Part shown: positions 1 through 42,629 of the stretch, in pieces
How positions within the stretch are numbered: position 1 is the first letter of the stretch
Layout: every line of letters begins with the position of its first letter
Virus record (IMG/VR): IMGVR_UViG_2703718827_000002
Location: 1-50,082 of that record
Origin: a virus
Taxonomy: Duplodnaviria > Heunggongvirae > Uroviricota > Caudoviricetes
DNA: 50,082 bases
Reading direction: 5' to 3' (one strand)
The notes under the pieces: model-generated
Database searches by the model: none
What the model was told of the DNA's origin: nothing
The model's input: the letters and a program-made list of their open reading frames with translations, nothing else
Program-made: the position numbers and the translations under genes

Positions 1-99
1 GAATTGCAGCTGCATCGACGACAACCGGAAGATAAGCACCCGGCGCTGCACCACAAAGCATTTCTCCCGCATCAGCGGGTAACGACAGAGGGTAAGTCA

Positions 100-768
100 A
101 TGATTCGTCTTAACAACGAAATTAAAAATCAGCTATGCCATAACCTGCTTCTCGCATCCCCATTGTTTGAGAAAGCGAAAGCTGCGGTTAATGAGAGGGC
201 GAAAATTGTTGAAGAAATTCGACAGGCATTGCTCAAGCAGGAAAACACTAGCGATGAGCAAATAACTAAGGCTCGGGAAGATTTCAAAGATAACTCCTTC
301 ATCAAGATGCAGGTCGGCGCTAAAACTGCAACTTTAAAGGTCATTATTAATGGTGAGTATCACGAATTAGCCAGGAACGGTTTGGATCATCGCTATCGCC
401 ACCGTGGAAAACATATTGGTAAGCACGATCTTGAAAGCGACCTGTTCTTCGGAGCTTCCTTCGCGCCTGTAATTGATTCGGGTTTCGTTCCTGAAAGTTA
501 CAGCACGCTGAAGAAAGTTGGAAAATTACACGACCGACTCACTGAATCGACGGTAACCATCAACGTTCTTTACGATGAAGTTGATGCCTTCCAATTGCAG
601 GTTAAAGGTGCTCTAACCAAAGTCTCAACTGTTAAAAAACTGGCTGAGATGTGGCCTGAGGCAGTGCCATATTTGCCTGAGGTGGAACGCCGTGAAGCGA
701 CCAGCACCGCACTTGCCATTCCCGTTGAAACGCTAAACGCCCTTTGCGGCATACCAAAGAATGAATGA
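100..768 (+). CDS. Hypothetical early-region protein (222 aa)
   Basis: ORF 4..768 begins at TTG; ATG at 100 is preceded by GAGGG RBS; followed by a hairpin terminator; no family recognised. Confidence 0.55.
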   Translation: MIRLNNEIKNQLCHNLLLASPLFEKAKAAVNERAKIVEEIRQALLKQENTSDEQITKAREDFKDNSFIKMQVGAKTATLKVIINGEYHELARNGLDHRYRHRGKHIGKHDLESDLFFGASFAPVIDSGFVPESYSTLKKVGKLHDRLTESTVTINVLYDEVDAFQLQVKGALTKVSTVKKLAEMWPEAVPYLPEVERREATSTALAIPVETLNALCGIPKNE

Positions 769-790
769 CCCGCTCCGGCGGGTTTTTTAT
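769..790 (+). terminator. Rho-independent terminator (CCCGC-TCCG-GCGGG + T6)
   Basis: Perfect 5-bp GC stem, 4-nt loop, followed by TTTTTT immediately after the stop codon at 766-768. Confidence 0.7.
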
Positions 791-929
791 CGGCCATACA
801 TAGGCAGATTTTCGAGTCTGCCCATTTATGACAACCGGCGGCCATCCACCGCCCATTGAAACACTGAATAAATGCGTTGAAGTCTTGTATTAACCGTTCC
901 GTTCGCCGCGATAAGGCCAAGAGGAAATC

Positions 930-1058
930 ATGGTAAACCAGCAGCAGATCAGAGAGGCCCAACGGCTCGCGTCGTTCGCGGTGCTCCATCGCAATGCTCC
1001 GGCGTGGGAAGAAGCAAAACGCCTTTACGCCGTCGCCATCGGGAGGACTCTTCACTGA
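930..1058 (+). CDS. Small hypothetical protein (42 aa)
   Basis: ATG with GAGGAAA RBS; stop TGA overlaps the next ATG (TGATG); below the ORF-track size cutoff. Confidence 0.4.
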   Translation: MVNQQQIREAQRLASFAVLHRNAPAWEEAKRLYAVAIGRTLH

Positions 1059-1255
1059 TGGAAACTTTATTCGCACTCGTCCTGACCGTGGCAATGACCA
1101 ACGGTGATTATCAGGATGTCATTCTCGGCGTTTACGACAGCCAGCAGGAATGCAGCCTGGCAGCTACAGAGCAGAAAGTGTCAGCTGAGTGCTGGCCGGT
1201 AGAAAGCATCATCCGCAACGGCGAGTTCCCGGCGAAATCCATCGCGCAGCAGTAA
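1058..1255 (+). CDS. Small hypothetical protein with hydrophobic N-terminus (65 aa)
   Basis: ATG at 1058 inside track ORF 1004..1255 (GTG start); GGGAGG RBS; translationally coupled to the upstream small ORF. Confidence 0.45.
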   Translation: METLFALVLTVAMTNGDYQDVILGVYDSQQECSLAATEQKVSAECWPVESIIRNGEFPAKSIAQQ

Positions 1256-1325
1256 CCACCCTATTCAACCGATCGGCCTGGCATTACGCGGGCGGGATCT
1301 GCACATCCAAATTTCAGGAGAAACC

Positions 1326-2297
1326 ATGAGCGAAGTAACGGATTTAGTCGTCATTGAGAAACAGAACGCAATGGCGGTATTCACCACCAAAGAGCAGCTC
1401 GACCCTATTATTGAGGCGATCGAGAAAGAAGCTCGCAGCCTGGTACCGGATGTGTCGACCCGCAAAGGCCGCGACGCGATCGCATCCATGGCGCATAAGG
1501 TTGCCCGCTCCAAAACCTATATCGACAACGCCGGCAAGGATCTGGTTGCCGAGCTTAAAGCCCTGCCGAAGCAGATCGACGAAAGCCGCCGCATTGTGCG
1601 TGAGAGGCTGGACGCGCTGAAGGATGAAGTACGGCGCCCACTTACCGAATGGGAAGCCGAGCAGGAACGTATTAAGGCTGAAGAAGCCATGAACGCGATG
1701 CACGCCGAAGCACTGGTGATGAACGAGAGCATCGATTTGCAGCGGGCTATTCAGTTCGAAGCGGACCACGAAATGGCTCTGCTGATGAATAAGGATTTTG
1801 ACCGGGACCGCGAAGAGCAGCGCCGCCTGGCGGAACAGGCTCAACGTGAGCATGAAGAGCGCATTAAGAGTGAAGCGGCAGAGCAAGCCCGACGCGATGC
1901 CGAAGCGAAGCACAAAGCAGAAATTGAAGCCGCAGCGCGCCGTGAAGCTGAAGAGAAAGCGCGTGCAGAGCTGGCGGAACGCCAGCGCATTGAAGCGGAA
2001 CAGCGTGCGACACGCGAGAAGAAGGAAGCAGAAGCCCGGGCGGAAAGAGAAAAAGCTGCGGCAGTGGAAGCTGAGCGCCACAAGGCAAAACAGGCCGAAG
2101 ATGCTCGCCTGGCCGAAGAGAAGCGCCTCGCCGATGAACAGGCAAAGCGCGAAGCTGACGTGAAGCACCGCAAGACGGTCGGCACCAACATCGTTAACGC
2201 GCTCACCAGCCACACCAGCTTAACCCGCGAACAGGCTATCGAAGTGCTCACCGCACTTAAAGACGACCTAATCCCCTGCGCAAAAATTCATTACTGA
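1326..2297 (+). CDS. Coiled-coil phage protein with long Glu/Arg/Ala/Lys-rich region
   Basis: AGGAGA RBS; 323 aa; central charged low-complexity segment; sits upstream of the gam/bet/exo cluster. Confidence 0.6.
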   Translation: MSEVTDLVVIEKQNAMAVFTTKEQLDPIIEAIEKEARSLVPDVSTRKGRDAIASMAHKVARSKTYIDNAGKDLVAELKALPKQIDESRRIVRERLDALKDEVRRPLTEWEAEQERIKAEEAMNAMHAEALVMNESIDLQRAIQFEADHEMALLMNKDFDRDREEQRRLAEQAQREHEERIKSEAAEQARRDAEAKHKAEIEAAARREAEEKARAELAERQRIEAEQRATREKKEAEARAEREKAAAVEAERHKAKQAEDARLAEEKRLADEQAKREADVKHRKTVGTNIVNALTSHTSLTREQAIEVLTALKDDLIPCAKIHY

Positions 2298-2304
2298 GGC
2301 AACC

Positions 2305-2589
2305 ATGAACGCATACCTCACTTACGACCGCATCGAAGATCGGCGCTGGGTTGAGCAGCAGCTCACCGACGAGAAGGAGAAGTGGATCGACGACCGGGCT
2401 CAGAAAATCATCGACATGATGCCAAAAGAGCCGTCCGGCCTCTTCCACTTCACGGTCCCGATTGACTCCAGCCCATACGAAGGACTTCGCAGCGATAAAG
2501 CTGGCGAGGCTTACAACGATTTCATTTCGGCAGTTGCTTACGCCCAAGCGGAATACGACTGGGAACACCGTACCGGCTGCCCGTTTTAA
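2305..2589 (+). CDS. Gam-like protein (possible RecBCD inhibitor), short form
   Basis: N-terminus MNAYLTYDRIEDRRW resembles lambda GamS MNAYYIQDRLEAQSW; lies immediately upstream of bet/exo; C-terminus diverges. Confidence 0.45.
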   Translation: MNAYLTYDRIEDRRWVEQQLTDEKEKWIDDRAQKIIDMMPKEPSGLFHFTVPIDSSPYEGLRSDKAGEAYNDFISAVAYAQAEYDWEHRTGCPF

Positions 2590-2607
2590 TTTTTGAGGGG
2601 ATTAACG

Positions 2608-3453
2608 ATGGCAAACGAATTAACAATCACAGCGACGTCGCTTCAGGAGATAGGCGTCGACGTCTCCACCTGGAGCGCGCTGAAGAACAGCATCTACCCT
2701 GGCGCCAAAGACGAATCGGTAATGATGGCGCTTGATTACTGCCGCGCCCGCCAGTTGGATCCGTTGCTCAAACCTGTCCACCTCGTTCCGATGTACGTCA
2801 AAGACTCGAAAACAGGTAAAGGTGACTGGCGCGACGTGGTCATGCCTGGCATCGGGCTTTACCGCATTCAGGCAGACCGTTCCGGCGATTATGCCGGGGC
2901 TCGCGAGCCTGAGTTCGGGCCAGACACGACGCAGACACTTTCTGGTGTCGAGGTGACCTTCCCTCAGTGGTGCAAATACACCGTCTACAAGCGCATGCCC
3001 AGCGGCGAGATCGTCGAGTTCAGCGCCAAAGAATACTGGATTGAAAACTATGCCACCGCCGGCCGCGACACCACGGCGCCGAATGCAATGTGGAAAAAGC
3101 GCCCATACGGCCAGCTGGCGAAATGCGCAGAAGCCCAGGCGTTGCGTAAGGCATGGCCTGAGATTGGACAGCAGCCTACCGCCGAAGAAATGGAAGGCAA
3201 ATCACTGGACGTTGATATCCGTGACGTCACGCCGCGCAACACCACTGAAGCACTTCCACCAGCAGCAAGCGAAGAAACGCTGCAGGCGATAACCGATCTC
3301 TTAACGACACTGGATAAAGACTGGGAGAAAGACTTCCTCCCTGTGTGCAGAGACATCTTCAAACGGCCAATTCTTGAGGCGTCAGACCTCACTGAAGAAG
3401 AGGCACAGAAAGGGTTCAACTTCCTTCAGAAAAAAGCTAAGGCGGCAGCATGA
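2608..3453 (+). CDS. bet: RecT/Red-beta family single-strand annealing protein (Bet-like)
   Basis: C-terminal region closely matches lambda Bet (recalled); ATG at 2608 with GAGGGG RBS (track start 2593 is TTG); stop overlaps exo. Confidence 0.8.
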
Positions 3454-4130
3454 CACCCGAAATTATCCTGTCCCGGACTGGCATTGACGTAACCACGATC
3501 CAACAGGGCGACGAGGCATGGCACCGGCTGCGTCTCGGCGTCATTACTGCCTCTGAAGTGCATAACGTCATTTCCAAGCCGCGCTCCGGCACCAAATGGA
3601 CGGGCATGAAGATGTCCTACTTCCACACCCTACTCGCCGAGGTATGCACCGGCGTAGCACCAGAGGTTAATGCCAAGGCGTTGGCCTGGGGCAAGCAGTA
3701 CGAGGAAGACGCCCGCACCCTCTTCGAGTTCACCACTGACGTGAAAGTCACGGAGTCTCCGATCCTGTTCCGTGACGAGAGCATGCGCACCGCGTGCTCC
3801 CCTGACGGCCTTTGCAGTAACAATTTCGGCCTTGAGCTGAAATGCCCGTTCACCTCCCGCGACTTTATGAAATTCCGCCTCGGCGGTTTCGAAGCCATTA
3901 AGTCCGAGTACATGGCCCAGGTGCAGTACAGCATGTGGGTGACCGGAAAAGACGCCTGGTTCTTTGCCAACTACGACCCGCGCATGAAGCGCGAAGGTAT
4001 TCACCACGTCGTCGTTGAGCGGGACCCGCAGTACATGACCGATTTCAACGAAATGGTGCCGGAGTTCATTGAGAAGATGGACGAGGCGCTGGCAGAGATC
4101 GGCTTCACGTTCGGGGAACAGTGGAAATGA
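3450..4130 (+). CDS. exo: Lambda-type 5'-3' exonuclease (Red-alpha / YqaJ family)
   Basis: Sequence is near-collinear with recalled lambda Exo (MTPDIILQRTGIDV..., [24 protein letters not shown]). Confidence 0.9.
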
Positions 4131-4555
4131 AACGCACACCCTTTTACCGCCGGCCAGGGCGAACCGGGAAATTCTCCGGCCTCCGTGAGCGTGTTATCTG
4201 GATGATTCAGACGCGCGGCCGCCCGGTAACCGGCAGCGAAATCGCCGAGAAGTTTGGCGTAACGCTCATCGAGTTTAACCGGGTCGCCAACGGCATTACC
4301 CGCGGCACCGGGCAGATAGCGCAGGTCGTTGAGTCGAAAAAGTGGATCAACGAGGACGGCATTTGCGACCGGACATTCGACCTCGTCACGAAGCCTAAGG
4401 TCGTAACACCACAGGGCAAATCACGGCTATTCACCCGGCGCGCCATTGAGCAATCGCAGGAAGGCCGACGGCAGGAGTGCATTGAACGTGCCGCCCGCCG
4501 TAGTCGCCTGATTGCTCAGGGCCTCTACATCGACGAAATGGAGTCAGTGCTATGA
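4127..4555 (+). CDS. Hypothetical phage protein (142 aa)
   Basis: ATG at 4127 overlaps exo stop (ATGA); track ORF 4121..4555 starts at GTG. Confidence 0.5.
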
Positions 4556-4719
4556 AAGCGTGGTCTCTCGAAGAGCTGGCGCTGCTGTGGCGACACACAA
4601 ACGCTGAAGTCGCCGAGATTACTGTCCGCTGCATTGAAGAGGTAGGAGATAAGCGGCTGCAAACCAATATTGAGCGTAATGGCTGGGATGTAAACGATCC
4701 GGAGCGGGAGGCTGCATGA
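4552..4719 (+). CDS. Small hypothetical protein (55 aa)
   Basis: ATGA overlap with upstream stop; uninterrupted ORF; below track cutoff. Confidence 0.35.
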   Translation: MKAWSLEELALLWRHTNAEVAEITVRCIEEVGDKRLQTNIERNGWDVNDPEREAA

Positions 4720-4853
4720 CCGAAGGTATTGATCAGCTTATTTATAACGACGAGTTTCCCGGGATTGCGTACAACAAATTTACCGCCAGTTCTTTGGAAG
4801 GAAAAGTGGAAACCCGATCGGCAGGATGCACAGCAAGGGTTACTGGCGAATAG
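4716..4853 (+). CDS. Small ORF (45 aa), possibly the displaced 5' portion of the HNH gene
   Basis: ATG overlaps upstream stop; ends 28 nt inside the HNH ORF in another frame. Confidence 0.25.
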   Translation: MTEGIDQLIYNDEFPGIAYNKFTASSLEGKVETRSAGCTARVTGE

Positions 4854-5209
4854 CTTGCGGCAAGAAGTGCTATCTCGCCCATCGGCTGGCTTGGTTCTTC
4901 TGTTATGGGGTTTGGCCCAAAGAGATTGACCATATCGACAATAACAAGCTCAACAACTCCATCGGCAACCTACGTGAAGTCACCCACCAACTTAATCAAT
5001 TAAATATGCCACTGCGCAGTAATAACACGAGCGGTGTGAAAGGGGTTAATTGGGATAAGCATCGTAAGCGGTGGCGCGCCAGGGTGATTATTAACGGCAA
5101 GTATTTCACTGCCGGACACTTCAAGGAAATTGCAGATGCCGAGGTGGCAATCAGGGCACTCCGCGAGCAAGTCCATGGAGAATTTGCAAATCATGGGGGC
5201 AAGTCATGA
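4826..5209 (+). CDS. HNH homing endonuclease with AP2-like DNA-binding domain
   Basis: AHRLAW and IDHIDNNKLNNSIGNLR HNH motifs followed by SGVKGVNWDKHRKRWRARVIINGKYF AP2-like segment; upstream in-frame sequence also looks HNH-like. Confidence 0.7.
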   Translation: MHSKGYWRIACGKKCYLAHRLAWFFCYGVWPKEIDHIDNNKLNNSIGNLREVTHQLNQLNMPLRSNNTSGVKGVNWDKHRKRWRARVIINGKYFTAGHFKEIADAEVAIRALREQVHGEFANHGGKS

Positions 5210-5424
5210 CATCTGAAACAGACAACGCCGTACGCGCCGCCTGCCGCCGCTGCACCGAGGAAATCCAGCAGGCCATGCGCAAGAAGCCAAAGCCAAACTG
5301 GAACGAAACGGTGCCTCCAATCATCAACAAGCATCACAAGAAAATTGAATCTCTGGGAGTTAGCCTCCTGGAGTTTGTCGTCAAAACTGGCCGCCTTAAC
5401 GGGCGGTTTGGAGCCGAACAATGA
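5206..5424 (+). CDS. Hypothetical phage protein (72 aa)
   Basis: ATG overlaps HNH stop; GGGGG RBS. Confidence 0.45.
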   Translation: MTSETDNAVRAACRRCTEEIQQAMRKKPKPNWNETVPPIINKHHKKIESLGVSLLEFVVKTGRLNGRFGAEQ

Positions 5425-5515
5425 CAACAAAATTCCCCGGGTCGCTAAGTCGGCCCTTTTTATTGCTGGCGTTCACCTTCAACCGAATTAACCGACAGTT
5501 CCGGGAGCATTGACC

Positions 5516-5734
5516 ATGGACATCATCGACACAGCAGCAGAGATTGAAGAGCTTCAGCGTAACGCTGCCCTTTCCGCTCACCGCCTCAACCGTAACGCCG
5601 TATCAGCTGAGCGTTGTGAAGAATGCGACGAACCAATTTCCGAGCCGCGGCGCTCTGCCGTTCCCGGTTGCCAGACGTGCGCGGATTGCCAATCCGTCAT
5701 CGAGCTGAAGAATAAGCAGAGGGGAATCCAGTGA
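5516..5734 (+). CDS. TraR/DksA-family C4 zinc-finger protein
   Basis: CEECDEPI...CQTCADCQ four-cysteine motif near C-terminus; ATG at 5516 with GGGAG RBS (track start 5510 is TTG). Confidence 0.7.
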   Translation: MDIIDTAAEIEELQRNAALSAHRLNRNAVSAERCEECDEPISEPRRSAVPGCQTCADCQSVIELKNKQRGIQ

Positions 5735-6402
5735 AAGAGCGCGGAATGATTTTTAACGGCGAGATGGTGCGCGCCATCCTCGACGGCCGGAAGACGCAGA
5801 CGCGGCGCATCATGAAAATTCAGCCGTCTGATGGCTTCCACCCAACGCATAACGGTTACGATCTGGATTTAAACGCACACTGGTACACGCCTGGCGTGGT
5901 CGATAAAAACGGATACCTGCAGCCTGCAAAGAAAGATGTGTTTGGCGTTGCAGATGAGAATGAAGGCTACACCTGCCCGTTCGGTGCCGTCGGCGATCGC
6001 ATCTGGGTGCGCGAAACGTGGGCTGAAGCTGGTGCTGGCGCGCCGGACCTGAAACTTTATCGCGCGGATTATCCTGAGCACCTTCCAACTCATTACGAGA
6101 ATGTGCCGCCGGCTGATGAAATACGCTGGACGCCTTCGATTCACATGCCGCGCTGGGCCAGTCGTCTAACTCTGGAGATTACCGGCGTGCGTGTTGAGCG
6201 ACTTAGAGATCTGAGTGAGGACGATGCAAAGTCAGAAGGCATTACGCCGCCTTCCGGCGGGGTTCTTCCCGGATGGGAATATCGCATTAACTTCCGTGAC
6301 CTTTGGATGAGCATCTACGGTGCCGACAACTGGGAAGCTAACCCATGGGTTTGGGTTATCGAATTTAAGGTGGTGCCCAATGTTCAGGATAATCCAGCCT
6401 AA
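5731..6402 (+). CDS. ASCH-domain (PUA-like) protein
   Basis: N-terminal MIFNGEMVRAILDGRKTQTRR and C-terminal PWVWVIEFK resemble the ASCH signature (as in E. coli YqfB); GTG at 5731 overlaps upstream stop with AGAGGGG RBS; ATG at 5746 is an alternative start. Confidence 0.5.
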   Translation: MKERGMIFNGEMVRAILDGRKTQTRRIMKIQPSDGFHPTHNGYDLDLNAHWYTPGVVDKNGYLQPAKKDVFGVADENEGYTCPFGAVGDRIWVRETWAEAGAGAPDLKLYRADYPEHLPTHYENVPPADEIRWTPSIHMPRWASRLTLEITGVRVERLRDLSEDDAKSEGITPPSGGVLPGWEYRINFRDLWMSIYGADNWEANPWVWVIEFKVVPNVQDNPA

Positions 6403-6619
6403 TACCTGGTACGCCGATGATTTCGGCGCGCCATGCAAAATCCTCCGCGCTACCCACGAAGTAATCCACTACATCCGCAACGGCCGCACCTGCATTGCCA
6501 GCATGGGCCGCTTTAATCAGGATTTCGAGCCGCTGACCAAAGCAGAGGCCGAGCGGATCGCTGAAGAAATCGAAACAGCAGAACACCTGAAGAAGCTGCG
6601 TGCCCATCGCGCGGCGTAA
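6380..6619 (+). CDS. Hypothetical phage protein (79 aa)
   Basis: ATG at 6380 with AAGGTGG RBS inside track ORF 6320..6619. Confidence 0.45.
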   Translation: MFRIIQPNTWYADDFGAPCKILRATHEVIHYIRNGRTCIASMGRFNQDFEPLTKAEAERIAEEIETAEHLKKLRAHRAA

Positions 6620-6627
6620 GGAGAACT

Positions 6628-6858
6628 ATGAGCACCATTCAGGACATCCTAAACCAGCTATCAACCCTGGTCACCGAGGCGCACAAAGTGGCGTGCTCAC
6701 TCGATATTGGTGATGAGCGAACCGAGGCTTTCGAGCTATACGAAGCGCTTCGTCGACTTCAGCGGCAGGGCGCCGCCGGAGAGATTCTCTCAGCAACCAA
6801 CCCTCTTCTCGCCTCGCCATATTACGACGAGGACTGGGACGAAGATGGAGACGACTGA
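6628..6858 (+). CDS. Hypothetical acidic protein (76 aa)
   Basis: AAGGAG RBS; Asp/Glu-rich C-terminus. Confidence 0.45.
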   Translation: MSTIQDILNQLSTLVTEAHKVACSLDIGDERTEAFELYEALRRLQRQGAAGEILSATNPLLASPYYDEDWDEDGDD

Positions 6859-6923
6859 CGCAACTGATAGCCAGTTATGAGCTGGCTATTGGGTGCGAAT
6901 GCACTGCCACGTTATCCCCCTTT

Positions 6924-6950
6924 CAGCCCTCCATTGCGAGGGCTTCTTTT
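6924..6950 (+). terminator. Rho-independent terminator
   Basis: AGCCCTC-cattgc-GAGGGCT hairpin followed by TCTTTTT. Confidence 0.6.
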
Positions 6951-6965
6951 TGCCTGGAGACAGCT

Positions 6966-7181
6966 ATGAATGACAGTATCCTGCTTACCAGTGACGTACT
7001 GGCTCGCTATAAGATTTCCCGGAGCACTCTGTATTTCTGGAGCACCCCGGAGCGAATGCCTGCTGGCTTCACCTGCCCTTTCCCCAAACCAACAATCCCC
7101 GGCAACCCAAAACGCTGGAGAGAGTCGGAGATCGTTTCGTGGGAAATGCAGGTCAACGCCTCTAAAGCTGATACCCAATAA
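6966..7181 (+). CDS. AlpA-family excisionase / phage regulatory protein
   Basis: 71 aa; LARYKISRSTLYFW helix-turn-helix typical of AlpA/Xis-like proteins; convergent with and overlapping the 3' end of the integrase. Confidence 0.6.
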   Translation: MNDSILLTSDVLARYKISRSTLYFWSTPERMPAGFTCPFPKPTIPGNPKRWRESEIVSWEMQVNASKADTQ

Positions 7182-8343
7182 TGCTCTGCAGGTGATTCTG
7201 CCAAATACCCAACCACTCGCGCTGGTCATCCATATAGTCGTGCAGGTTGTATCTGGCCATCACCCCACCCATCTGATGACCAAGCAGCTTTTCAATAACA
7301 TGCGGTGGCGCGCCAAGTTCTGACAACCTGGTTGCAACGGTGCGCCTCAGGTCATGCAGAGACCACTGTTTCATGTCTGTCTTTCTGATCACCTGCATGG
7401 AATAGGTCGAGACTAGGGCCTGAGTAGGTGGAATGTCTTCTTTATCTCGGAACTGAGCCGGTGTTAAAACGTGCTTAGTGACCGAACCTCTTTTATGCTC
7501 CTGAAGCAGCCTGATCGCCACTTCAGGCAATGCCCTCCTGATCGTCTTCCCTGTTTTGTAATCCTCAGCCGGTACCGTCCAGGTCTTTTCATTAAAGTTG
7601 TACCAGTCCCAGCGCGATTTCCTTATTTCTGCAGCCCTGCACCCAGTCAGGAGCATGAACCGTATAACAAGTTGCTGTGATGGAGGGAGCGCGAAAAGTG
7701 TATCCCAAACCACTTTGATCTCTTCGTCGGAGAGTCGCCTCTCCTTCATCTTCGCTGCAATACCAACGTCTGATCTGCGCAAGGATTCAAGCGGGTTGTT
7801 TTTAATTACCCCTCGGTTATGGCAGAACCGGAACGCGCGCTTCATTAATGACAGCATCTCACCAGTAATAACCGAACGCCCCATCTCGTCGAACACATCA
7901 AGCCAGTTAGCCTTGAACGTCTGATCAACCATCGCCCTGCCAATGCGCGGGCTAATGTGCTTCTGAAAGCTCCTGGTATTGGCATCGATTTTGATCAGAC
8001 CCTCGGGAATGCAGTAATGCTTTACCCAGTACTCATACGCCTGGTCAACCGTTAGCGCCTCTATCCTTTCTGCTTTCTCAACCAGAACCTTCTGGCGTGG
8101 ATCGTAACCCTCACTCAGCCAGGCGCGAAACTGCTGCCTGCGGTCTCTTGCCTGCGCTAATGAATAGGCTGGGTATTCACCTATACTGAGTTGCACCGGC
8201 TTACCCTGCCAGCGATAACGGTAGAAGAAAGTTACGCCACCAGTTATGCTTAACCTGACATTAAGCCCGTTTGAATCTGAGAGAACTTCCACACTCTCTC
8301 TGCGCTTACCAAGCGCCTTACGAAGTTTTGTATCTGTGAGCAT
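7162..8343 (-). CDS. int: Tyrosine integrase (P4-type)
   Basis: C-terminal catalytic region with HDLRRT...LLGH...Y; N-terminal MLTDTKLRKA typical of P4-like integrases; ATG at 8343 with AGGGG RBS (track start 8352 is GTG). Confidence 0.85.
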   Translation of the reverse strand: MLTDTKLRKALGKRRESVEVLSDSNGLNVRLSITGGVTFFYRYRWQGKPVQLSIGEYPAYSLAQARDRRQQFRAWLSEGYDPRQKVLVEKAERIEALTVDQAYEYWVKHYCIPEGLIKIDANTRSFQKHISPRIGRAMVDQTFKANWLDVFDEMGRSVITGEMLSLMKRAFRFCHNRGVIKNNPLESLRRSDVGIAAKMKERRLSDEEIKVVWDTLFALPPSQQLVIRFMLLTGCRAAEIRKSRWDWYNFNEKTWTVPAEDYKTGKTIRRALPEVAIRLLQEHKRGSVTKHVLTPAQFRDKEDIPPTQALVSTYSMQVIRKTDMKQWSLHDLRRTVATRLSELGAPPHVIEKLLGHQMGGVMARYNLHDYMDDQREWLGIWQNHLQSIIGYQL

Positions 8344-8645
8344 CGTGTACACCCCTGAGCCATGTACTCAGCAGTGTACACAAAACACGTAAATTGCAAC
8401 CATACAAAATAAAACACGTTAAAGAGTTATAAACAATGAAGTGAGTAACGGCGCGGTTTTGGCGGGAATAATTTTAAACGCAATAAAACACGATAAAGCA
8501 GAACTCGTTGAAGTATTATGCCTCAGGAAGATAAATCCTAACCAGACTGCCAGTCCTTCGGGGCTGGCGCTGTATCTCCTCTGTTCTCCTCAGGAAAATC
8601 ATAGTAGCATCGCGCCTGTGATTTTCCTTTTAAGTCGGTTTTACC

Positions 8646-10026: not shown

Positions 10027-10323
10027 GTGTTGTATGTTATTTACGCTCAAGACAAAGCTGATAGCCTCGAAAAACGCCTTTCCGTTCGTCCGGCACATTT
10101 AGCACGTTTACAGTTACTGCATGATGAAGGTCGTTTGTTGACAGCTGGTCCAATGCCAGCGGTAGACAGTAACGATCCAGGGGCTGCGGGATTTACTGGC
10201 TCAACCGTTATTGCTGAATTTGAATCGCTGGAAGCAGCTCAGGCCTGGGCCGATGCTGACCCGTACGTAGCGGCAGGAGTCTATGAACACGTTTCAGTGA
10301 AACCATTTAAGAAAGTGTTCTAA
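10027..10323 (+). CDS. yciI: YciI-like protein
   Basis: 98-aa product from GTG start matching the recalled yciI neighbour of tonB; track ORF 9931..10323 extends upstream. Confidence 0.7.
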
Positions 10324-10387
10324 TTTATTAGAAATTTGCACTTAAATCAAAAAGTTACGGACAATTCAACCACCAATCAATAAATTA

Positions 10388-10430
10388 AAGGGCACATTAA
10401 AGTACACAATATTTGTGCCCTTCTCTGTTT
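10388..10430. terminator. Hairpin between yciI and the invertase gene (possible bidirectional terminator)
   Basis: AAGGGCACA ... TGTGCCCTT inverted repeat with T-rich flanks; loop is long, so weaker. Confidence 0.35.
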
Positions 10431-10441
10431 CTTTCCCGTTA

Positions 10442-10990
10442 TCAGCTAGCTGGAAACTTTTTATACAGAGTTGAGAGCCCTACTCCATACGTTTTTGATA
10501 CGCTTTGTCGTGATTCACCGGTTGCCATCCGCTCCCCCATTTCCCGCCATTGCTCATCCGTGAACTTAGGCCTGCGACCACCAACTCGCCCTTTTGCCCT
10601 GGCTACGGCCAGCCCTGCTAAGGTACGTTCGCTATTAAGATCAGATTCATATTGTGCTGCGGAAAGGATGTTACGAAAGTTATAGCGGCCGCTGGCTGTT
10701 TTGAGATCCACGCCATCGGTAATACTGCGGAAGTTGATACCCTTTTCCTGTAACTGCTGGAACATCAACAGCGCATGCAGAACGTTGCGGCCTATCCTGT
10801 CCAGCTTCCAGACCACCAGTTCATCCCCCGGCTGCATAGTGGCGATCAGCCGTTTTAGAACCGGCCGATTCGATTTCCTCCCGCTGGCATGCTCTTCAAA
10901 AATTTTCTCACAACCCGCTGACTTGAGCGCCGTTAGTTGCAATTCAGTGTCCTGGTGGTTTGTTGATACTCGGGCATAACCGTAAATCAT
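10442..10990 (-). CDS. Serine recombinase, Hin/Gin/Pin-type DNA invertase
   Basis: MIYGYARVSTNHQD...VVWKLDRIGR...C-terminal HTH GLSTLYKK; 182 aa; typical resolvase/invertase catalytic domain. Confidence 0.85.
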   Translation of the reverse strand: MIYGYARVSTNHQDTELQLTALKSAGCEKIFEEHASGRKSNRPVLKRLIATMQPGDELVVWKLDRIGRNVLHALLMFQQLQEKGINFRSITDGVDLKTASGRYNFRNILSAAQYESDLNSERTLAGLAVARAKGRVGGRRPKFTDEQWREMGERMATGESRQSVSKTYGVGLSTLYKKFPAS

Positions 10991-11194
10991 GAGTGCTTCT
11001 CCTGTTGTAAAAACAGGAGAAGAGGCGAAATATCACCTGATTCAGAAAAATATTTGAAAGGTTGGTTTGGGAGAAGCGGCAAAACGGGATGTGGGAACAG
11101 GGGAAAATCAGATACCGGATATGGCTTTTTTTGCCAGTGGTGATGGATGGATGAAATTACCCAACGGTAAAATCCTGCAATATGGTCGAGGTGC

Positions 11195-11418
11195 GGTTAC
11201 GCCGCCGAGGTATCGATACAATTGTGTTATGTGGGATCTCGACCAATATCGGTGTTGAATCCACCGCCCGCAATGCCTGGGAACTTGGCTTTAATCTGGT
11301 GATTGCCGAAGACGCCTGTAGTGCCGCCAGCGCCGAGCAACACAATAACAGCATTAATCATATCTACCCGCGCATCGCCCGTGTGCGTAGCGTGGAAGAG
11401 ATCCTTCACGCGTTATGA
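11195..11418 (+). pseudogene. yecD: 3' fragment of isochorismatase-family gene yecD
   Basis: Only the C-terminal ~75 codons ([18 protein letters not shown]...RVRSVEEIL) are present; the upstream in-frame sequence is unrelated; stop overlaps the yecE start. Confidence 0.6.
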
Positions 11419-11520
11419 TTTACATCGGTCTGCCGCAATGGTCGCATCCTAAATGGGTGCGGTTGGGGATCACCAGCCTTGAAGAGTATGCCCGTCACTT
11501 TAACTGCGTGACGCGGGCAT
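11415..11520 (+). pseudogene. yecE: 5' fragment of yecE, truncated at a prophage junction
   Basis: [32 protein letters not shown] matches the recalled YecE N-terminus for about 35 codons, then diverges into AT-rich phage-end sequence. Confidence 0.6.
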
Positions 11521-11638
11521 TTTAAAAATCACTAAAGAACGCCCAAGAGCATGTGTTTTCTTTAGTTTATTCAATGCATTAAAAAATAGTTTCGCATGAA
11601 ATTCGGTAAACTTCATGTGTGCAATAATGTCCCATTCA

Positions 11639-11690
11639 TGCCCCAAAATGCCCCAAAGCAGACATTTTTGCCCCAAGTATGCCCCACAAG
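11639..11690. repeat. Four direct TGCCCCA(A/C)A repeats with helical phasing
   Basis: Copies start at 11639, 11649, 11669 and 11680 (spacings 10, 20, 11 bp), about 120 bp inside the yecE junction. Confidence 0.6.
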
Positions 11691-12012
11691 TCACGTCTTC
11701 AAGTCGTCTATATCCATAGCACACCGAGTTACATTCTTGCATCCGGGGTGTCGACAATACCTACTTTATTGAGTGTGCGAGAATTACCAGGAACCTTTCC
11801 ACAATGTAGTAGTCTAATAGTCGAATCCATCTAACATTAAGAAGCGTTATGATCACTATCCTCTCATTGATATCTTCTGTAATAGTCACTCTATGTATCA
11901 TGGTGTTCGCTACAGTAAAGGTAGGGATTGGTTTGTCTAACAATCCAGACAGAAATGATAATTAACCTCAACCACGTAACCCCACTTCATACTTCACTTA
12001 ACAGTGATGTGC

Positions 12013-12402
12013 TCACATCACCGGGCAATCATCAAACTCTGCATTCCTGGCGTCATTGATGATGTAAGTAAGCACCCCAAATACAGCGGGTGCAGAACTG
12101 TAACCGCCATCATCTACTGGCAGCGCCTCCTTTCTCCCGTTCTCCAGATTAACGAGGTGGGGTTGAGGATGTGTCCGATATCGCTTGATCCTAAATTCTC
12201 CGTCTATCGCGCAGATCAGCAGCGAGCCATCACAGGCTGAAAGTGAGGCATCAACAACAAGCAGCGCCCCCTGAATTATCCCTTCCCTGAAATGTGAACG
12301 CGATGCACGCATGAAATAAGTCGCTGCGGGCTGGCTGATTAACTGCTGATCGAGGGAGATTCGTGTTTCAACATAATCTGCAGCAGGTGAAGGAAAGCCC
12401 AT
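12013..12402 (-). CDS. UmuD'-like protein (HumD-like, lacks the UmuD N-terminal autocleavage segment)
   Basis: Begins MGFPSPAADYVE, matching the UmuD' N-terminus after the Cys24-Gly25 cleavage site; AAGGAG RBS before ATG 12402; no umuC partner in window. Confidence 0.65.
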   Translation of the reverse strand: MGFPSPAADYVETRISLDQQLISQPAATYFMRASRSHFREGIIQGALLVVDASLSACDGSLLICAIDGEFRIKRYRTHPQPHLVNLENGRKEALPVDDGGYSSAPAVFGVLTYIINDARNAEFDDCPVM

Positions 12403-12490
12403 GATCTGCACTCCTTTCACTGTTTTTATATACAGTAGTTTTAATGTGAGTGCAGATCAATGTGGAGACACCTATCAATACCGCCAGGAG

Positions 12491-12784
12491 TTAAAGGGCG
12501 GCGACAAAATACACGGCGGTGCAGGCCAGAACCGGAACGAGCCAGTCCAGCAGGCTGGGCAGATTCCATACGCGCAAGGAGAACCCGCCCCACCACGGCA
12601 TATTGGCCCGTTTTCCGCCGCCGAACTGTGCGATCCAGCGATACTCTGCCTGGGTGTGCTCGCGGGCTATAAACCACATGCAGCCTATCGCGCCGCCAGC
12701 ACCCCACATCCCAGAAACCAGTCCGACAGCGCATTGAAGGGTTACGGCTATGGCAGCGTGTACAAACGGAGAAAAATCAGCCAT
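12491..12784 (-). CDS. Small membrane protein (97 aa)
   Basis: ATG at 12784 overlaps the tailspike stop; hydrophobic segments with Gly/Trp-rich motif. Confidence 0.45.
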   Translation of the reverse strand: MADFSPFVHAAIAVTLQCAVGLVSGMWGAGGAIGCMWFIAREHTQAEYRWIAQFGGGKRANMPWWGGFSLRVWNLPSLLDWLVPVLACTAVYFVAAL

Positions 12785-35080: not shown

Positions 35081-36581
35081 CCCAGTCGTGGTCTTCCTGC
35101 TGGGTATCTACGTCATCCGGGTTTTTGCTGTCGCGAACCAGCACGGGTATGCGGCTAATCCAGCCACGGCAATGCTCCAACACGTAAAAAGCAGGCTTCT
35201 CAGGAATTCCAGATTCCAGCTTCTTACCCTCAACCACCGCCTCAAGCATGTCGGCGAATACCGAAGCCCCGTTGACTCGAGAGCCTGGCTTCTTATTGGC
35301 CTCAAGCCATTCAACACCCTGATTTTCCATTTTCTGACCGATCGATAACTCATCGTCGCCAGTGTTGAAAATGGCGCTATCAGCTGGGCCAGGAATAACC
35401 TCCGAGCAAATTCCCGGCACAATGTTGAGTTGGCCCTGCGTGACCCCGTCGATTTGAATCTCTTCCGGCTCGTCGACGTCTTCGCCCACAAGCCGCTTGT
35501 CAATCCACGCCACGCCTTTCGCGACGTTGGTGGATGACATGTTCAGGCCTTTGTTCAGCTCGTCAGGCGGGCAGCCGTACCATTCTCCGATCAGGATTAT
35601 CGAACCAGCCGGCGGGCAGAACTGTCGACCATCTGGCAGCTCGGCGGCAGTGCCGTCAGCTTGGGCCCACCAGAGGTTAGAGAACGGCTTCGACTCACCC
35701 CAGTCATGGGAGCGGTCGACGGTCCAACTATCCGGTATGCGGAACGGCTTAATGACGTGCAGCGCTTCATTCCACAGGTGGTCAAATCGTCCGCCACTGG
35801 TCACATCCCAGGAGCCCTCTACCCAGGCCTTGCGTCGGTTAGGGTCTTTGATGGCCATCAGGGTCGCGATGTACTGCGGGTCGAGGTACGGGTTTTCTTT
35901 AAACGAGCCGTGGATTGCCACGCGGGTCAGCGTGATTTCCTCTTCTCGCTCAGTCTGAGGGTTGAATACCATTTGCCGGTCGCGCTGTACGGTTCCGCGC
36001 GGCGCTGGCTCAATGAAGCGCTTCTTCACCCAGGTATGCCCGATGCCAAACGGGTTGGTCGTGCTGAATGTCTCTAGCGGGATTGGCCTCAGTAACTTGC
36101 CATTCTCCAGCGGGTAGTTTTCCGGCCTGAACGATGAACGTCGGCACGAGAACATCATTTCGTAGAATTCCGGGGACTGCTGTTTAGTCAGCTCGTTAAA
36201 GCCGATAAACGGGAATTCCTGCCCGTGGAAATCCCAGTAGTCGTCTGCCTCTTTGCCGAAGCGGAAGAGAAGTTCCTCGCCTGTGGGCCATACCCATCGC
36301 AATTCGCTCGCAGATGACAGATAGCGCGCACCGTCGTTGAATAGGCGAAACATACGCTTCGACTGAGTGATGATGTCGGCAAGGTTCTTATATTCGGTGT
36401 CGAAAATGACGCCGCGCCAGAACGAGCCATAACCCACGCCGACATTACGCCTGAACCTGGCTAACTGCGCAGCTGTCTTGCCCGGTCCGCGAGAGCCCTC
36501 GAACAGGATTTCGTTACACGGGCAGCTCAGCGCCAGGGACTGAGATCCAGGCAGTGGCTTCCATACAGCTTTGTAATTCAT
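35019..36581 (-). CDS. Terminase large subunit
   Basis: N-terminal Walker A (GSRGPGKT), 520 aa, ATGA coupling to the small subunit. Confidence 0.85.
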   Translation of the reverse strand: MNYKAVWKPLPGSQSLALSCPCNEILFEGSRGPGKTAAQLARFRRNVGVGYGSFWRGVIFDTEYKNLADIITQSKRMFRLFNDGARYLSSASELRWVWPTGEELLFRFGKEADDYWDFHGQEFPFIGFNELTKQQSPEFYEMMFSCRRSSFRPENYPLENGKLLRPIPLETFSTTNPFGIGHTWVKKRFIEPAPRGTVQRDRQMVFNPQTEREEEITLTRVAIHGSFKENPYLDPQYIATLMAIKDPNRRKAWVEGSWDVTSGGRFDHLWNEALHVIKPFRIPDSWTVDRSHDWGESKPFSNLWWAQADGTAAELPDGRQFCPPAGSIILIGEWYGCPPDELNKGLNMSSTNVAKGVAWIDKRLVGEDVDEPEEIQIDGVTQGQLNIVPGICSEVIPGPADSAIFNTGDDELSIGQKMENQGVEWLEANKKPGSRVNGASVFADMLEAVVEGKKLESGIPEKPAFYVLEHCRGWISRIPVLVRDSKNPDDVDTQQEDHDWDATRYRVLHSPRRSGAIFFT

Positions 36582-37228
36582 CCACCGAGCACCCCGTCCT
36601 GATGTTTCTGCGCTGCCGCCTCCCAGTCATCCACGTTGTCACTGGTTGGCACCAGCATGACGTTATGGGTGACCTCTTTCGTTTCAGCCTTATTCTCGAT
36701 GCTGTATGCCTCACGCTCGAGGCCGATCAGCGTCTTTAGGCTGTCGCTCAGGTCTTTCATGGATTTAACGCGGGAAGGCAGGCTGATCACTTTCTGATAA
36801 ATTTCATTGAGCCGGTCCCGCCCTTTATCGTCGGGGTCAAACATGATGTCGCCCAACTGCTCGAGCGCGCTTACATCTGCGCACTGCGCACCAAGTTCAT
36901 CGAATAGCGTGTTGGTCAGTTCACGAGCCCGGCGGATGTCTCCCCGGTGCTCCATGCGTACCGTGGCAATTACCTCGGCAGTCGCCTCTATCAGTACGCG
37001 CTCGGTCAAAGTGCTTTCGTTGCGTACCTGTTTGCGTACCTCCTGTTTGCGTACCAGATCATCAGCCTTTTGCTGAATCTTCGCATTGAGGTCACGCGAC
37101 CAGTCGTCACGCTTGGCACGCTTACGGATAGCGCCTTCGCTAATACCGTGCTGTGAAGCAATTTCTCGGAGGGACATCACTCCGGCCCGGTACGCCGTCT
37201 CGATGGCCTCCCAGTCCGGTTTGCTCAT
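36578..37228 (-). CDS. Terminase small subunit
   Basis: N-terminal helix-turn-helix (MSLREIASQHGISEGAIRKRAKRDDW), position upstream of the large subunit. Confidence 0.75.
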   Translation of the reverse strand: MSKPDWEAIETAYRAGVMSLREIASQHGISEGAIRKRAKRDDWSRDLNAKIQQKADDLVRKQEVRKQVRNESTLTERVLIEATAEVIATVRMEHRGDIRRARELTNTLFDELGAQCADVSALEQLGDIMFDPDDKGRDRLNEIYQKVISLPSRVKSMKDLSDSLKTLIGLEREAYSIENKAETKEVTHNVMLVPTSDNVDDWEAAAQKHQDGVLGG

Positions 37229-37231
37229 TCG

Positions 37232-37450
37232 TTACTCCGTTGTTTGTCCTGCTGGCTGTTCGGTCTGCTCTGCCGGTACTGGCGTAAACTGCACGCGCTT
37301 CACATCGGCCGGAGCGAAATAAAGCCACTCGCCCGTCTCTGTCGCCAGCGGCACAAAGCCATTAACCAACTCAGGCTGACGTCGTGACATCTTGCCCGTG
37401 AAGGTTTCGCCTGTTTGAGTGGTTAGCGTGATTTGGTAGATGTCGGACAT
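37232..37450 (-). CDS. Small hypothetical protein (72 aa)
   Basis: ATG 37450 with GAGGG RBS (track start 37462 is GTG). Confidence 0.4.
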   Translation of the reverse strand: MSDIYQITLTTQTGETFTGKMSRRQPELVNGFVPLATETGEWLYFAPADVKRVQFTPVPAEQTEQPAGQTTE

Positions 37451-37527
37451 GAAGACCCTCACAAGCCACTGTTGAAGAAAATGCCATCAGCATGGTGATG
37501 GCATTACAATTCAATAATATGGCTGTA

Positions 37528-38109
37528 TTATTTTGCAGTTTTGTATTCAATAAACCCGTCAAAAATCAGACTATCGATGGTCATCATTTTCGTAAGTTTT
37601 TCCATAACCTCAGGATTTTCTTGCATATCAACAAGCCATCTCCTCACGCCATTAGCTATATCATTACATAACTCAATAACATCTAATTGCAGAACACCAT
37701 TAAAAGCATTCATATGTGCATGAAGGTTTTCTCGCGCAGGGGTCGTTATCTTAAACTTCCTTAGCTTCGTTTCATCAACGCCTTCATGCAAACATGCATT
37801 CCTTAAACTCCAACAGTCTTCTGCAGTGAATGAGACTACGGGTTTTTGCGCCCTTAAGCTTTGCTTTATTCCTTCAGGCATGCTCTGAACCATTGCAGGG
37901 CTGGTGAGACTTAAATAGTCATACATGTTATCAGCGTTATATCTTGGCTTAAGATAGCGATTAAACCAGTCCTTGTACCTCGCGCCATTTCCTTTGATTT
38001 TATCCTCTGTCGCGCCACAGATGTCAGGAAGTGATATTGCTATGAATAAAGCACCAAACCAATTCTTTTTAGACAAGCAATCATCTATTCCACTCAGCAA
38101 CTGTTGCAT
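37528..38109 (-). CDS. Hypothetical protein (193 aa) with R-x4-H motif, insertion between lysis cassette and terminase
   Basis: ATG 38109 with AAGGTG RBS (track start 38190 is GTG overlapping Rz); visibly AT-rich; SLRNACLHEG contains R-x4-H; hairpin terminator downstream. Confidence 0.55.
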   Translation of the reverse strand: MQQLLSGIDDCLSKKNWFGALFIAISLPDICGATEDKIKGNGARYKDWFNRYLKPRYNADNMYDYLSLTSPAMVQSMPEGIKQSLRAQKPVVSFTAEDCWSLRNACLHEGVDETKLRKFKITTPARENLHAHMNAFNGVLQLDVIELCNDIANGVRRWLVDMQENPEVMEKLTKMMTIDSLIFDGFIEYKTAK

Positions 38110-42623: not shown

Positions 42624-42629
42624 AATGAG

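Follow-up and report, generated by a model that had tools for sequence, protein, structure and literature searches.

The arm-type sites of phage lambda share the motif C/AAGTCACTAT. In lambda attP these sites (P1, P2 and P'1-P'3) are bound by the N-terminal domain of Int (Ross & Landy 1982, as cited in PMC2951348). The attachment sites described here resemble lambda attP in that both arms, one of which lies beside int, carry phased repeats of a short motif distinct from the core. Moreover, the core and the distal cluster are separated by 115-170 bp that include an IHF-like site, and the integrases have a dedicated N-terminal arm-binding domain. Unlike in lambda, the motif in the yecE-type family is TGCCCCA, and the cognate integrases carry Pfam Arm-DNA-bind_2 instead of the Arm-DNA-bind_1 of lambda-type Int. 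The int-proximal pair of sites is inside the int coding sequence, and the family minimum is 2 + 2 putative sites. The arm sites of KplE1 IntS are of yet another, TAAA-containing type. In the literature searched, binding and recombination reports included, we found no published arm sites for the TGCCCCA integrase family. A further difference from lambda concerns the window (the whole 50,082-nucleotide stretch of DNA analysed here), in which the sites are orphaned, with neither an Int nor a partner site.

A piece of the yecE locus inside a prophage has been described before. The PPompW prophages of E. coli O145:H28 carry an attB-in-prophage, a 100-bp attB-like stretch with 87% identity to yecE, into which phages were shown to integrate (Nakamura et al. 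2021, PMC8112680). The yecE-integrating Stx phages of that case have an integrase of the same family as the one discussed here (74.5% identity to the Int of the free phage CharmingMan). Similarly, the window has a yecE-locus piece with an att core inside a lambdoid prophage. Unlike the PPompW attB, the relic in the window is attR-like, since 314 bp of yecD'-yecE' are followed by a phage-type half core and a complete P arm, and it is found in phi80-type phages at yciI.

Two phage genomes, phi80 (JX871397) and mEp237 (JQ182730), have the same order of elements as the window: the phi80 core, pin (pinL in phi80), inverted repeats, a tail-collar fragment (PHI80_29), yecD'-yecE' (PHI80_28) and an arm with TGTCCCA and TGCCCCA. 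Between 10302 and about 11560 of the window, phi80 and the window are near-identical in sequence. The window arm is 80-86% identical to that of phi80, compared with 99-100% to that of E. coli G3/10, which has a true yecE prophage. The phi80 arm has three exact heptamers because of a 10-bp deletion, and these are followed by a LexA box and dinL, whereas the window has four, with ynaM- and umuD-like genes beyond them. In the phi80 record this place is annotated only as a 'DUF72 N-terminal fragment pseudogene', and not as an att relic or arm sites. The Stx2 converting phage II (AP005154) is like the window in having four distal TGCCCCA heptamers, which in its P arm are spaced 11/20/11, and it also has an int-proximal pair. 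In its record, an 'attachment site' and a 'repeat_region' cover part of the heptamers, which are annotated only as repeats. Unlike the window, Stx2 II has a wrbA-type core, and its attP is functional and is served by its own Int, which shares 69% identity with the yecE type.

In the window, four exact TGCCCCA heptamers are found on the plus strand at 11639, 11649, 11669 and 11680, with their starts 10, 20 and 11 bp apart, just as the original prediction had it. A degenerate fifth copy, TGTCCCA (11628-11634), is positioned 11 bp upstream of the first exact heptamer. Together they form a row of five helically phased, putative arm-type sites (11628-11686, plus strand) with a spacing of 11/10/20/11, i.e. 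four exact copies and one degenerate copy in 59 bp. The TGTCCCA copy is retained in the five other full-length yecE-type arms that we compared, and the shorter arm variants of HH107 and 22F46 have an exact TGCCCCA where the others have TGTCCCA. Measured from the end of the core, the five sites have offsets of +118, +129, +139, +159 and +170, and the first two offsets (+115 to +129) are kept in all eight arms compared. The repeats had been placed about 120 bp inside the yecE end, and the first copies do lie 118-129 bp beyond 11510. The end of the yecE similarity itself had been recognised correctly, but it falls after position 11510, i.e. after 32 codons, and not at 11518-11520, an error of about 8-10 bp.

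TGCCCCA is not enriched across the whole window (8 copies versus 8.0 expected), and the significance is limited to its clustering, which is far from chance. The best 7-mer cluster in the window consists of these four non-overlapping same-strand copies of TGCCCCA within 50 bp. None of 300 dinucleotide-preserving shuffles reached a four-copy cluster, and the best cluster had two copies in 252 shuffles and three copies in 48. We also considered a coding repeat, since the assembly annotates a 58-aa ORF over the repeats. This was rejected because the arm variants differ by 10-bp indels and yet the heptamers stay in phase. With a permissive E-value, a search of 10200-12600 against Rfam yielded only a single sub-threshold chance match.

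The DNA between yecE' and the repeats has a recognisable anatomy. The hybrid core of the attR type (11488-11520) consists of the inverted half-sites ATGCCCG (11488-11494) and CGGGCAT (11514-11520) around TTAACTGCGTG (11500-11510), and TTAACTGCGTG is common to attL and attR of the real yecE prophage in G3/10. Close to the core lies a conserved box (11527-11566) which holds the perfect 9-bp inverted repeat ACTAAAGAA / TTCTTTAGT. The box, AAATC(G/A)AC(A/T)AAGA(T/A)CG(T/C)CCAAGAGC, is retained beside the core in attPs with unrelated cores and is a candidate site for an accessory protein, either Xis or a host factor. It is followed by an IHF-like site (11569-11581, plus strand), positioned 59 bp from the core, whose sequence ATTCAATGCATTA has one mismatch to WATCARNNNNTTR. 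At an equal offset, phi80 and P-EibC have the perfect consensus, while G3/10 and CharmingMan have one mismatch; in PhiR49_2 the consensus also fits at the corresponding place when judged by eye. IHF binding at 11569-11581 is presumed from the match to the consensus. Between the IHF-like site and the repeats there is a palindrome, CATGAAATT-N5-AACTTCATG (11595-11617), which has a counterpart in other yecE-type arms, CATATGAA...TTCATATG.

The same heptamer is found on both arms of native attachment sites. In the true yecE prophage of G3/10, TGCCCCAttgaTGCCCCA is found on the int-proximal arm, at a distance of about 55 bp from the core TTAACTGCGTG that attL and attR share. Both G3/10 and CharmingMan have a pair of heptamers spaced by 11 bp at the 3' end of int, and the heptamer appears again 115-170 bp past the core. 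In CharmingMan (L008) the heptamers are at 2917 and 2928, the core is at about 2998, and further heptamers follow at 3126, 3137, 3167 and 3178. We examined nine further native attPs with 32-79% Int identity and several different cores, and eight of the nine have the two-arm layout. The exception is Yersinia YP3, in which the int-proximal pair is present and no second cluster was found within 520 bp. The layout was observed in Klebsiella KPP5665-2 and Mulock, IdasGreatGrand, CobraSix, phi330, phi315, Stx2 II and a Providencia phage (52-79% Int identity and several unrelated cores), and the spacer DNA between the sites is otherwise not conserved across the relatives. Pseudomonas KT1, with 32% Int identity and a tRNA-type core, shows the same layout with TGCCCTA in place of TGCCCCA: int is followed by one exact and one partial copy, and about 215 bp beyond these comes an exact pair. 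This means that the motif tracks the integrase family rather than the core or the integration site, and that it changes with the distant Pseudomonas Int. The arm variants preserve the helical phase. In phi80 one site was lost by a deletion of exactly 10 bp, and CharmingMan is without that site and keeps a 30-bp spacing. An inverted TGCCCCA inside the int gene of G3/10 was treated as a chance occurrence because it falls in conserved MGH codons and is absent from CharmingMan.

The cognate integrases are proteins of 437 aa with an Arm-DNA-bind_2 domain (PF12167) at residues 7-70 (E = 2e-23 and 1.7e-24) and a Phage_integrase domain. The Int of the G3/10 prophage is WP_047400034.1. Among members with different cores, conservation is higher in the N-terminal 75 residues (62-88%) than over the rest of Int (51-80%). 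A search of solved structures with the cognate Int sequence gave no structure of the arm domain, only distant matches to the catalytic domain. Since the int-proximal heptamer pair is within the int coding sequence, where it encodes ...AP.MP(Q/H)..., part of its conservation could be at the protein level.

Taken with the two-arm distribution, the domain content of these integrases suggests that the TGCCCCA repeats are very probably arm-type sites for the integrase family of yecE-, yehV- and wrbA-integrating (Stx-type) phages. The prediction that they are integrase arm-type sites near an att core was supported by the heptamers on the other arm in G3/10, in CharmingMan attP and in relatives with other cores, and by the arm-binding N-terminal domain of Int. 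For the window we favour, with a probability of roughly 0.8, the reading that they are orphan P-arm sites in a fossil attR, carried as a passenger in a phi80-type prophage at yciI and belonging to a lambda-style (heterobivalent) tyrosine integrase of the phiP27/Stx-phage family. The window repeats are then an ordinary, orphaned piece of known machinery. What they offer is a concrete arm-site motif, TGCCCCA, and an attP layout (two heptamers at the 3' end of int, a second cluster 115-170 bp beyond the core, and a conserved box close to the core) for a medically relevant integrase family, the one that places many Shiga-toxin phages at yecE, yehV and wrbA.

The surroundings of the repeats place the host-prophage junction elsewhere. 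The true junction is a phi80-type att core at 10302-10318, inside the 3' end of yciI, and the prophage fills 10305-50082. The yciA-tonB-yciI segment has a prophage on either side. From 10302 rightward the window aligns to phi80 attP, starting at its annotated core (2803-2819 in L001), and the published phi80 attB, gtgaaaccatttaagaaagtgttctga, is located within the yciI 3' end (PMC13449921). To the right of this core there is a gene for a Pin-type DNA invertase (10442-10990, minus strand; Pfam Resolvase and HTH_7), a homologue of phi80 pinL and collinear with it in the att-proximal module. Then comes an internal fragment of a tail-collar gene (11067-11196, plus strand; PHI80_29 in phi80), whose abrupt join to yecD' marks the left edge of the captured host DNA. 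The similarity to the real yecD begins at about 11197, and the relic of its 3' end, yecD', occupies 11197-11418 (plus strand). It is followed by yecE' (11415-11510, plus strand), which comprises codons 1-32 of yecE and reaches as far as the crossover core, and in which the identity to MG1655 yecE ends after 11510 (...TTAACTGCGTG). The yecD'/yecE' island is therefore only 314 bp long (11197-11510), and its identity to real E. coli alleles is about 97%, with differences at 9-11 positions. The yecD' relic is identical in phi80, XL10, mEp237 and BFJP01000002, and it has relic-specific SNPs compared with the three real yecD alleles of MG1655, G3/10 and ECOR-9. Phage DNA lies on both sides of the island, and the virion genomes of phi80 and mEp237 have the same module of pin, tail-collar', yecD', yecE' and arm. 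The relic status of yecD'-yecE' and of the arm is well supported by these comparisons. The yecE end had been put forward as the host junction of this prophage, and this did not hold.

The far end of the prophage was approached by way of another genome. LR134240.1 is 100.000% identical to the window over 35761-50082 (14.3 kb), and about 6 kb further on it has a phi80 Int (100% identical to that of phi80) and the phi80 core adjoining kch, which implies a single prophage of about 45.8 kb. The window contig ends about 6 kb short of the far prophage end, and the phi80-type Int was seen in LR134240.1 only. From this genome we infer that the far end of the window prophage is also a phi80 Int and core next to kch. 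The other prophage end was expected to have a matching core next to the rest of yecE; by this proxy it has the phi80 core at kch instead. By tblastn there is no integrase of the TGCCCCA family in the window, and the sole integrase found there (7162-8352) is of the Arm-DNA-bind_3 type.

On the fossil attR reading, a working attP of this family would have two TGCCCCA sites, 11 bp apart, in the last ~50 nt of int as the P' arm, and two to five more heptamers 115-170 bp on the other side of the core as the P arm. All the arm sites would share one orientation and one face of the helix. The Int protomers would dock on the heptamers with their small N-terminal domains while their catalytic domains hold the core, and the conserved box and the IHF-like site between the core and the repeats presumably supply the bend, through IHF or Xis, that folds the arm back. 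In the window the fossil attR would read host yecD'-yecE', core and P arm, and the phi80-type prophage that carries it would have entered the yciI 3' end by its own, unrelated phi80 integrase. The window sites are orphaned because no cognate integrase or partner attL is present. The orphan sites alone should do nothing, and would act only if a co-resident phage of the family supplied Int.

Several phi80-type relics with different arms diverge right at the core, which hints that the relic may not be wholly inert. Four arm types (phi80/mEp237, the window, 22F46 and HH107) are joined to a left part that is identical through 11510, and they diverge from 11511-11520, directly after TTAACTGCGTG. The arm variants are also present at true yecE junctions, the phi80 type in EC2001 and the window type in G3/10 and L125. 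Furthermore, yecE-derived att sequences inside prophages are proven landing sites of Stx phages (PMC8112680), and a yecE-derived stretch with an att core is carried inside a prophage here as well. The relic could thus be a live secondary attachment site for an Int of the family supplied in trans, with the arm from 11511 to ~12403 as the remnant of a trimmed prophage-in-prophage or of an attR exchange with a yecE prophage. We consider this improbable. In other relic copies host-type SNPs reach further left, with crossovers at 11223-11340 (L126, L127 and L132) and at 11391-11432 (L128), and crossovers in yecD' are what ordinary homologous recombination within the shared yecD'/yecE' sequence would leave behind. 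The clustering of switches at the core is not significant because there are so few independent events. One composite junction, in which the core would join the 3' end of the G3/10 int to a phi80-type arm, is absent from 5,426 complete E. coli genomes, and a second complete phage would not fit into the prophage length of about 45.8 kb. A whole yecE-type phage to the right of the core, inside the relic, was likewise rejected; this length speaks against it, as does the far end of LR134240.1 with its phi80 Int and core.

A more general form of this idea is that the fossil attR of phi80-type phages is a trans-acting recombination site, a landing pad or an Int-mediated exchange partner with yecE prophages. 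Both its core and its set of arm sites for the Stx-phage integrase family are complete, and it may therefore serve in this way, although we hold this to be doubtful. If it were true, tail-proximal cargo would be shuffled by the exchange, and the segment of roughly 640 kb that spans the terminus between yciI and yecE could be inverted; the idea would also explain the relic copies whose arms switch exactly at TTAACTGCGTG. With a relic usable in trans, phi80-type phages would join the prophage-in-prophage and rearrangement biology described for STEC.

Another explanation for the repeats is that they are operator or activator sites, or excisionase sites, which control the promoter of the neighbouring SOS-regulated cargo. 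Several native arms have a TTGACA / LexA-box / TATAAA promoter for dinI that lies 30-45 bp downstream of the end of the repeats, and in lambda, Xis likewise binds direct repeats that are phased on the P arm. However, the same heptamer pair is found on the other arm, inside int and at a fixed distance from the core, whereas Xis sites are expected on one arm only. The pair is also present in members without a downstream dinI (the Klebsiella phages, IdasGreatGrand, CobraSix, phi315 and Stx2 II). The window itself has no dinI, and a scan of 11400-12500 found no promoters or terminators adjoining the repeats. We consider regulatory or excisionase sites very unlikely.

That ~11511 is a real junction between the host yecE locus and a prophage integrated by its own integrase is hardly credible: the sequence across 11511 is of the genuine yecE attR type (99.2% identical to G3/10) and yecE is a documented integration site (PMC8112680), but the host-like DNA is limited to the 314-bp island, beyond which the tail-collar fragment, pin and the phi80 core in yciI are followed by tonB and yciA, aspS, which flanks the real yecD, is absent from the window, the island is packaged within phi80 and mEp237, its SNPs are missing from the three real yecD alleles, and the far end by proxy is at kch. 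What looks like the end of a host gene can turn out to be a fossil att site that a phage carries along, and when such a fossil is read as a junction, as here, the prophage boundary is misplaced by 1.2 kb and the wrong integration locus is assigned.

The likeness to G3/10 extends past the repeats. The stretch at 11197-12403, which is 99.2% identical to the genuine yecE attR of that strain, includes the arm, a ynaM-like gene and most of an S24/UmuD-like gene. The small ORF of the YnaM/YnfT family (11849-11965, plus strand; Pfam YnaM) is annotated in G3/10 and is cargo that travels with this arm variant. The gene for the S24 (UmuD/HumD-like) peptidase (12013-12402, minus strand; Pfam Peptidase_S24) is also cargo beside the arm. 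The exact S24 protein is found in 328 blocks of the collection, and among the 10 places listed, nine adjoin yciI-pin-relic and one is at the real yecD locus.

The yecE break lies 1.2 kb from the true junction of the prophage that carries it. The window is the entire contig LONM01000010.1 (50,082 bp) of the E. coli assembly GCA_001575785.1. Its leftmost part holds the early-left genes and the P4-like integrase gene (7162-8352, minus strand) of a first prophage, followed by the host genes yciA, tonB and yciI. The second prophage holds, in order, the gene for a Pin-type invertase (10442-10990), part of a tail-collar gene, and 222 bp of yecD' joined to 96 bp of yecE'. The repeats come next, ahead of an ORF resembling ynaM and a gene of S24/UmuD-like type; the remainder encodes functions for tail, head, lysis and replication as well as a cI-like repressor. 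Near-identity to phage phi80 spans 10302 to about 11560, beginning at the annotated phi80 attP core, with matching gene order (core, pinL, inverted repeats, the tail-collar pseudogene PHI80_29 and PHI80_28, 'N-terminal fragment, DUF72'). Phage mEp237 carries the same module (core, pin, tail-collar', yecD'-yecE'). The phi80 attB lies within the 3' end of yciI (PMC13449921), where the phi80 similarity of the window also begins. The contig ends short of the far end of this prophage, which we read by proxy from chromosome LR134240.1 (identity to window 35761-50082, 100.000%). Past the shared part, this chromosome continues for about 6 kb to an integrase 100% identical to phi80 Int, then the phi80 core, then kch. 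On these alignments the true junction is at 10302-10318, and the second prophage appears as a single, phi80-sized element of about 45.8 kb. The original prediction, which took the yecE break as the host junction and expected a matching core at the other end, is contradicted at the near end and, by proxy, at the far end.

The truncated 5' fragment of yecE was confirmed. It begins at 11415, but its identity to MG1655 stops exactly after 11510, directly behind TTAACTGCGTG and after 32 codons, so that the predicted break point was off by about 8-10 bp. By alignment, yecD'-yecE' (11197-11510) is a 314-bp host-derived island inside the phage, which differs at shared positions from three real yecD-yecE alleles (MG1655, G3/10 and ECOR-9). 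The segment 11197-12403 matches, at 99.2% identity, a genuine right junction, that of the yecE-integrated prophage in E. coli G3/10, which reads aspS, full-length yecD, yecE', arm, ynaM and S24 peptidase. At the opposite end of the G3/10 prophage, the gene for a 437-aa integrase overlaps the restored yecE. Because of this match, and because TTAACTGCGTG is common to both G3/10 ends, we read the island and arm as an attR copy consisting of bacterial half, core and phage P arm. The real yecE prophage of E. coli EC2001 (locus L122, 6992-8522) shows yecD, yecE', core, arm, dinI, pin, an inverted repeat and a tail gene. The phi80-type module (window 10442-11196 onward) is a circular permutation of this right end, in which the tail-collar fragment and yecD' meet at a novel joint (about 11197); this points to illegitimate recombination in an ancestor integrated at yecE. 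The phi80 annotation marks the relic solely as a pseudogene. The Pin-type invertase gene of the window is left without any invertible segment.

The relic may be used in trans by family integrases, the phiP27/Stx-phage enzymes that integrate at yecE, yehV or wrbA. Four arm types (phi80/mEp237, window, 22F46 and HH107) are preceded by one and the same left part and differ from immediately behind TTAACTGCGTG onward, arm variants are likewise present at true yecE junctions, and Stx phages are proven to land in yecE-derived att sequences inside prophages (PMC8112680). However, the crossovers of other relic copies fall inside yecD' (11223-11340 and 11391-11432), as expected from ordinary homologous recombination, and one composite junction predicted by prophage-in-prophage integration was found in none of 5,426 complete genomes. 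Whichever mechanism applies, the region represents a mosaic joint. At yciI, the pin-relic-arm-umuD arrangement is common, and the tail modules joined to it are very different. In an ENA metagenome scaffold (L126, 1-3347), the yciI/pin/relic/umuD module is joined to a Mu-like baseplate (Gp45, Gp46, J, Gp48) in place of a siphovirus tail, so that the module for phi80-type integration moves between very different virion types.

The four predicted TGCCCCA repeats in the P arm of this attR copy were confirmed by reading and exact search. They start at 11639, 11649, 11669 and 11680 on the plus strand (gaps of 10, 20 and 11 bp), and a repeat finder added a degenerate fifth copy, TGTCCCA, at 11628, 11 bp upstream of the first exact one. 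The heptamer is at chance level window-wide (8 copies vs 8.0 expected), and in none of 300 dinucleotide-preserving shuffles did any 7-mer occur four times on one strand within 50 bp.

Their interpretation as integrase arm-type sites gained support from related attachment sites. In G3/10, TGCCCCAttgaTGCCCCA lies on the int-proximal arm, about 55 bp away from the core and oriented like the distal copies. In the intact attP of the free phage CharmingMan, a pair at the 3' end of int precedes the core, and TGTCCCA plus three copies of TGCCCCA lie 117-169 bp past it. The cognate integrases combine an N-terminal Arm-DNA-bind_2 domain with a catalytic domain; their relatives are those of phiP27 (86%), yecE-integrating Stx phages (74.5%), VT1-Sakai and BP-4795 (72%) and P13374/Min27-type phages (69-70%). 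The two-arm layout recurred in eight of nine further native attPs, several with cores unrelated to that of yecE. In seven, two heptamers 11 bp apart occupy the last ~50 nt of int, a second cluster follows 207-237 bp downstream, and besides the heptamers almost only a core-adjacent box is conserved. The distal arm of Stx2 II is spaced 11/20/11. In the eighth, Pseudomonas KT1 (integrase 32% identical, tRNA-type core), the layout is kept with the motif TGCCCTA: one exact and one partial copy follow int closely, and an exact pair lies about 215 bp beyond them. In Yersinia YP3, the ninth, the int-proximal pair stands alone in the 520 bp covered. All eight yecE-type arms compared place their first two sites at +115 to +129 from the core, and helical phase is kept in the variants: the deletion in phi80 is of exactly 10 bp, and CharmingMan retains the 30-bp spacing despite the loss of one site. 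The N-terminal 75 residues of Int are better conserved than the remaining protein across differing core specificities. The motif on both arms, fitting Int domains, recurring layout, conserved offsets and phase, and conserved Int N-terminus are what arm-type sites would predict, and are not what one would expect of a coding repeat, a promoter element or Xis sites. The 58-aa hypothetical protein annotated in GenBank at 11500-11676 (minus strand), across core, box and repeats, is almost certainly spurious, because the arm variants differ by 10-bp indels.

The int-proximal sites double as codons in the int 3' ends of the compared loci L004, L008 (CharmingMan), L089-L094, L117 and L119. All family integrases end in ...AP.MP(Q/H)... 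or a close variant, encoded by TGCCCCAnnnnTGCCCCA, and protein and DNA-binding-site constraints overlap there.

The arm comprises inverted core half-sites (11488-11494 and 11514-11520), the conserved box with a perfect 9-bp inverted repeat (11527-11566), an IHF-like site at +59 from the core (11569-11581), a palindrome (11595-11617) and the five heptamers (11628-11686). The IHF-like site is a perfect consensus in phi80 and P-EibC and, by eye, in PhiR49_2 as well. By analogy with lambda, the catalytic domains of four Int protomers would sit on the core sites and their N-domains would contact the phased heptamers on both arms; bending of the DNA, at the box or at the IHF-like site, would return the distal cluster to the core. 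With the 2 + 2 sites that are the minimum in the family, each protomer would have one, and extra copies may have different roles in integration and excision. The arm resembles a lambda-type P arm in function, whereas its motif and Int domain family are distinct from those of lambda. The bacterial-side half-site ATGCCCG (11488-11494) resembles the arm motif ATGCCCCA (11638-11645) over 6 bases, probably by coincidence, since the wrbA-type core of Stx2 II is without it.

The arm sites of the window are, as far as its gene content indicates, orphaned, because we found no family integrase encoded in the window, the prophage's own integrase, as read from LR134240.1, is phi80-type (Arm-DNA-bind_3) and a partner attL is absent from the window. 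No description of arm sites for the phiP27/Stx-type integrase family was found in the literature searched; one GenBank record labels part of them 'repeat_region'. The layout is not surprising, and it is useful for annotation and for studies of Stx-phage integration.

Window 1-8518 is the right end of the other lambdoid prophage, inserted between yciB and yciA, with its P4-like integrase of the Arm-DNA-bind_3 type; E. coli similarity resumes at about 8518. The yciA-tonB-yciI segment is therefore flanked by prophage on both sides. Related phages occupy the yciB/yciA site in 23CRST004 and in a Logan contig (L097). The latter matches window 39222-50082 at 99.97% identity and, 604 bp later, window 1-1346 at 99.6%. 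A near-identical early region is probably common to the two prophages, and would account for the draft contig breaking off in it on either side. Three copies of GCTGGACA at 11-bp spacing (47661-47690) lie inside a replication-initiator-like gene (47184-48089, minus strand), whose protein repeats the peptide ADVQPVS; they look like origin iterons, as in lambda O. Three copies of TTGCGTACC (starts 37020, 37032 and 37047; span 37020-37056) fall in the first ~70 codons of a 216-aa ORF (36578-37228, minus strand) directly upstream of the large terminase gene, and may form a packaging-recognition repeat.
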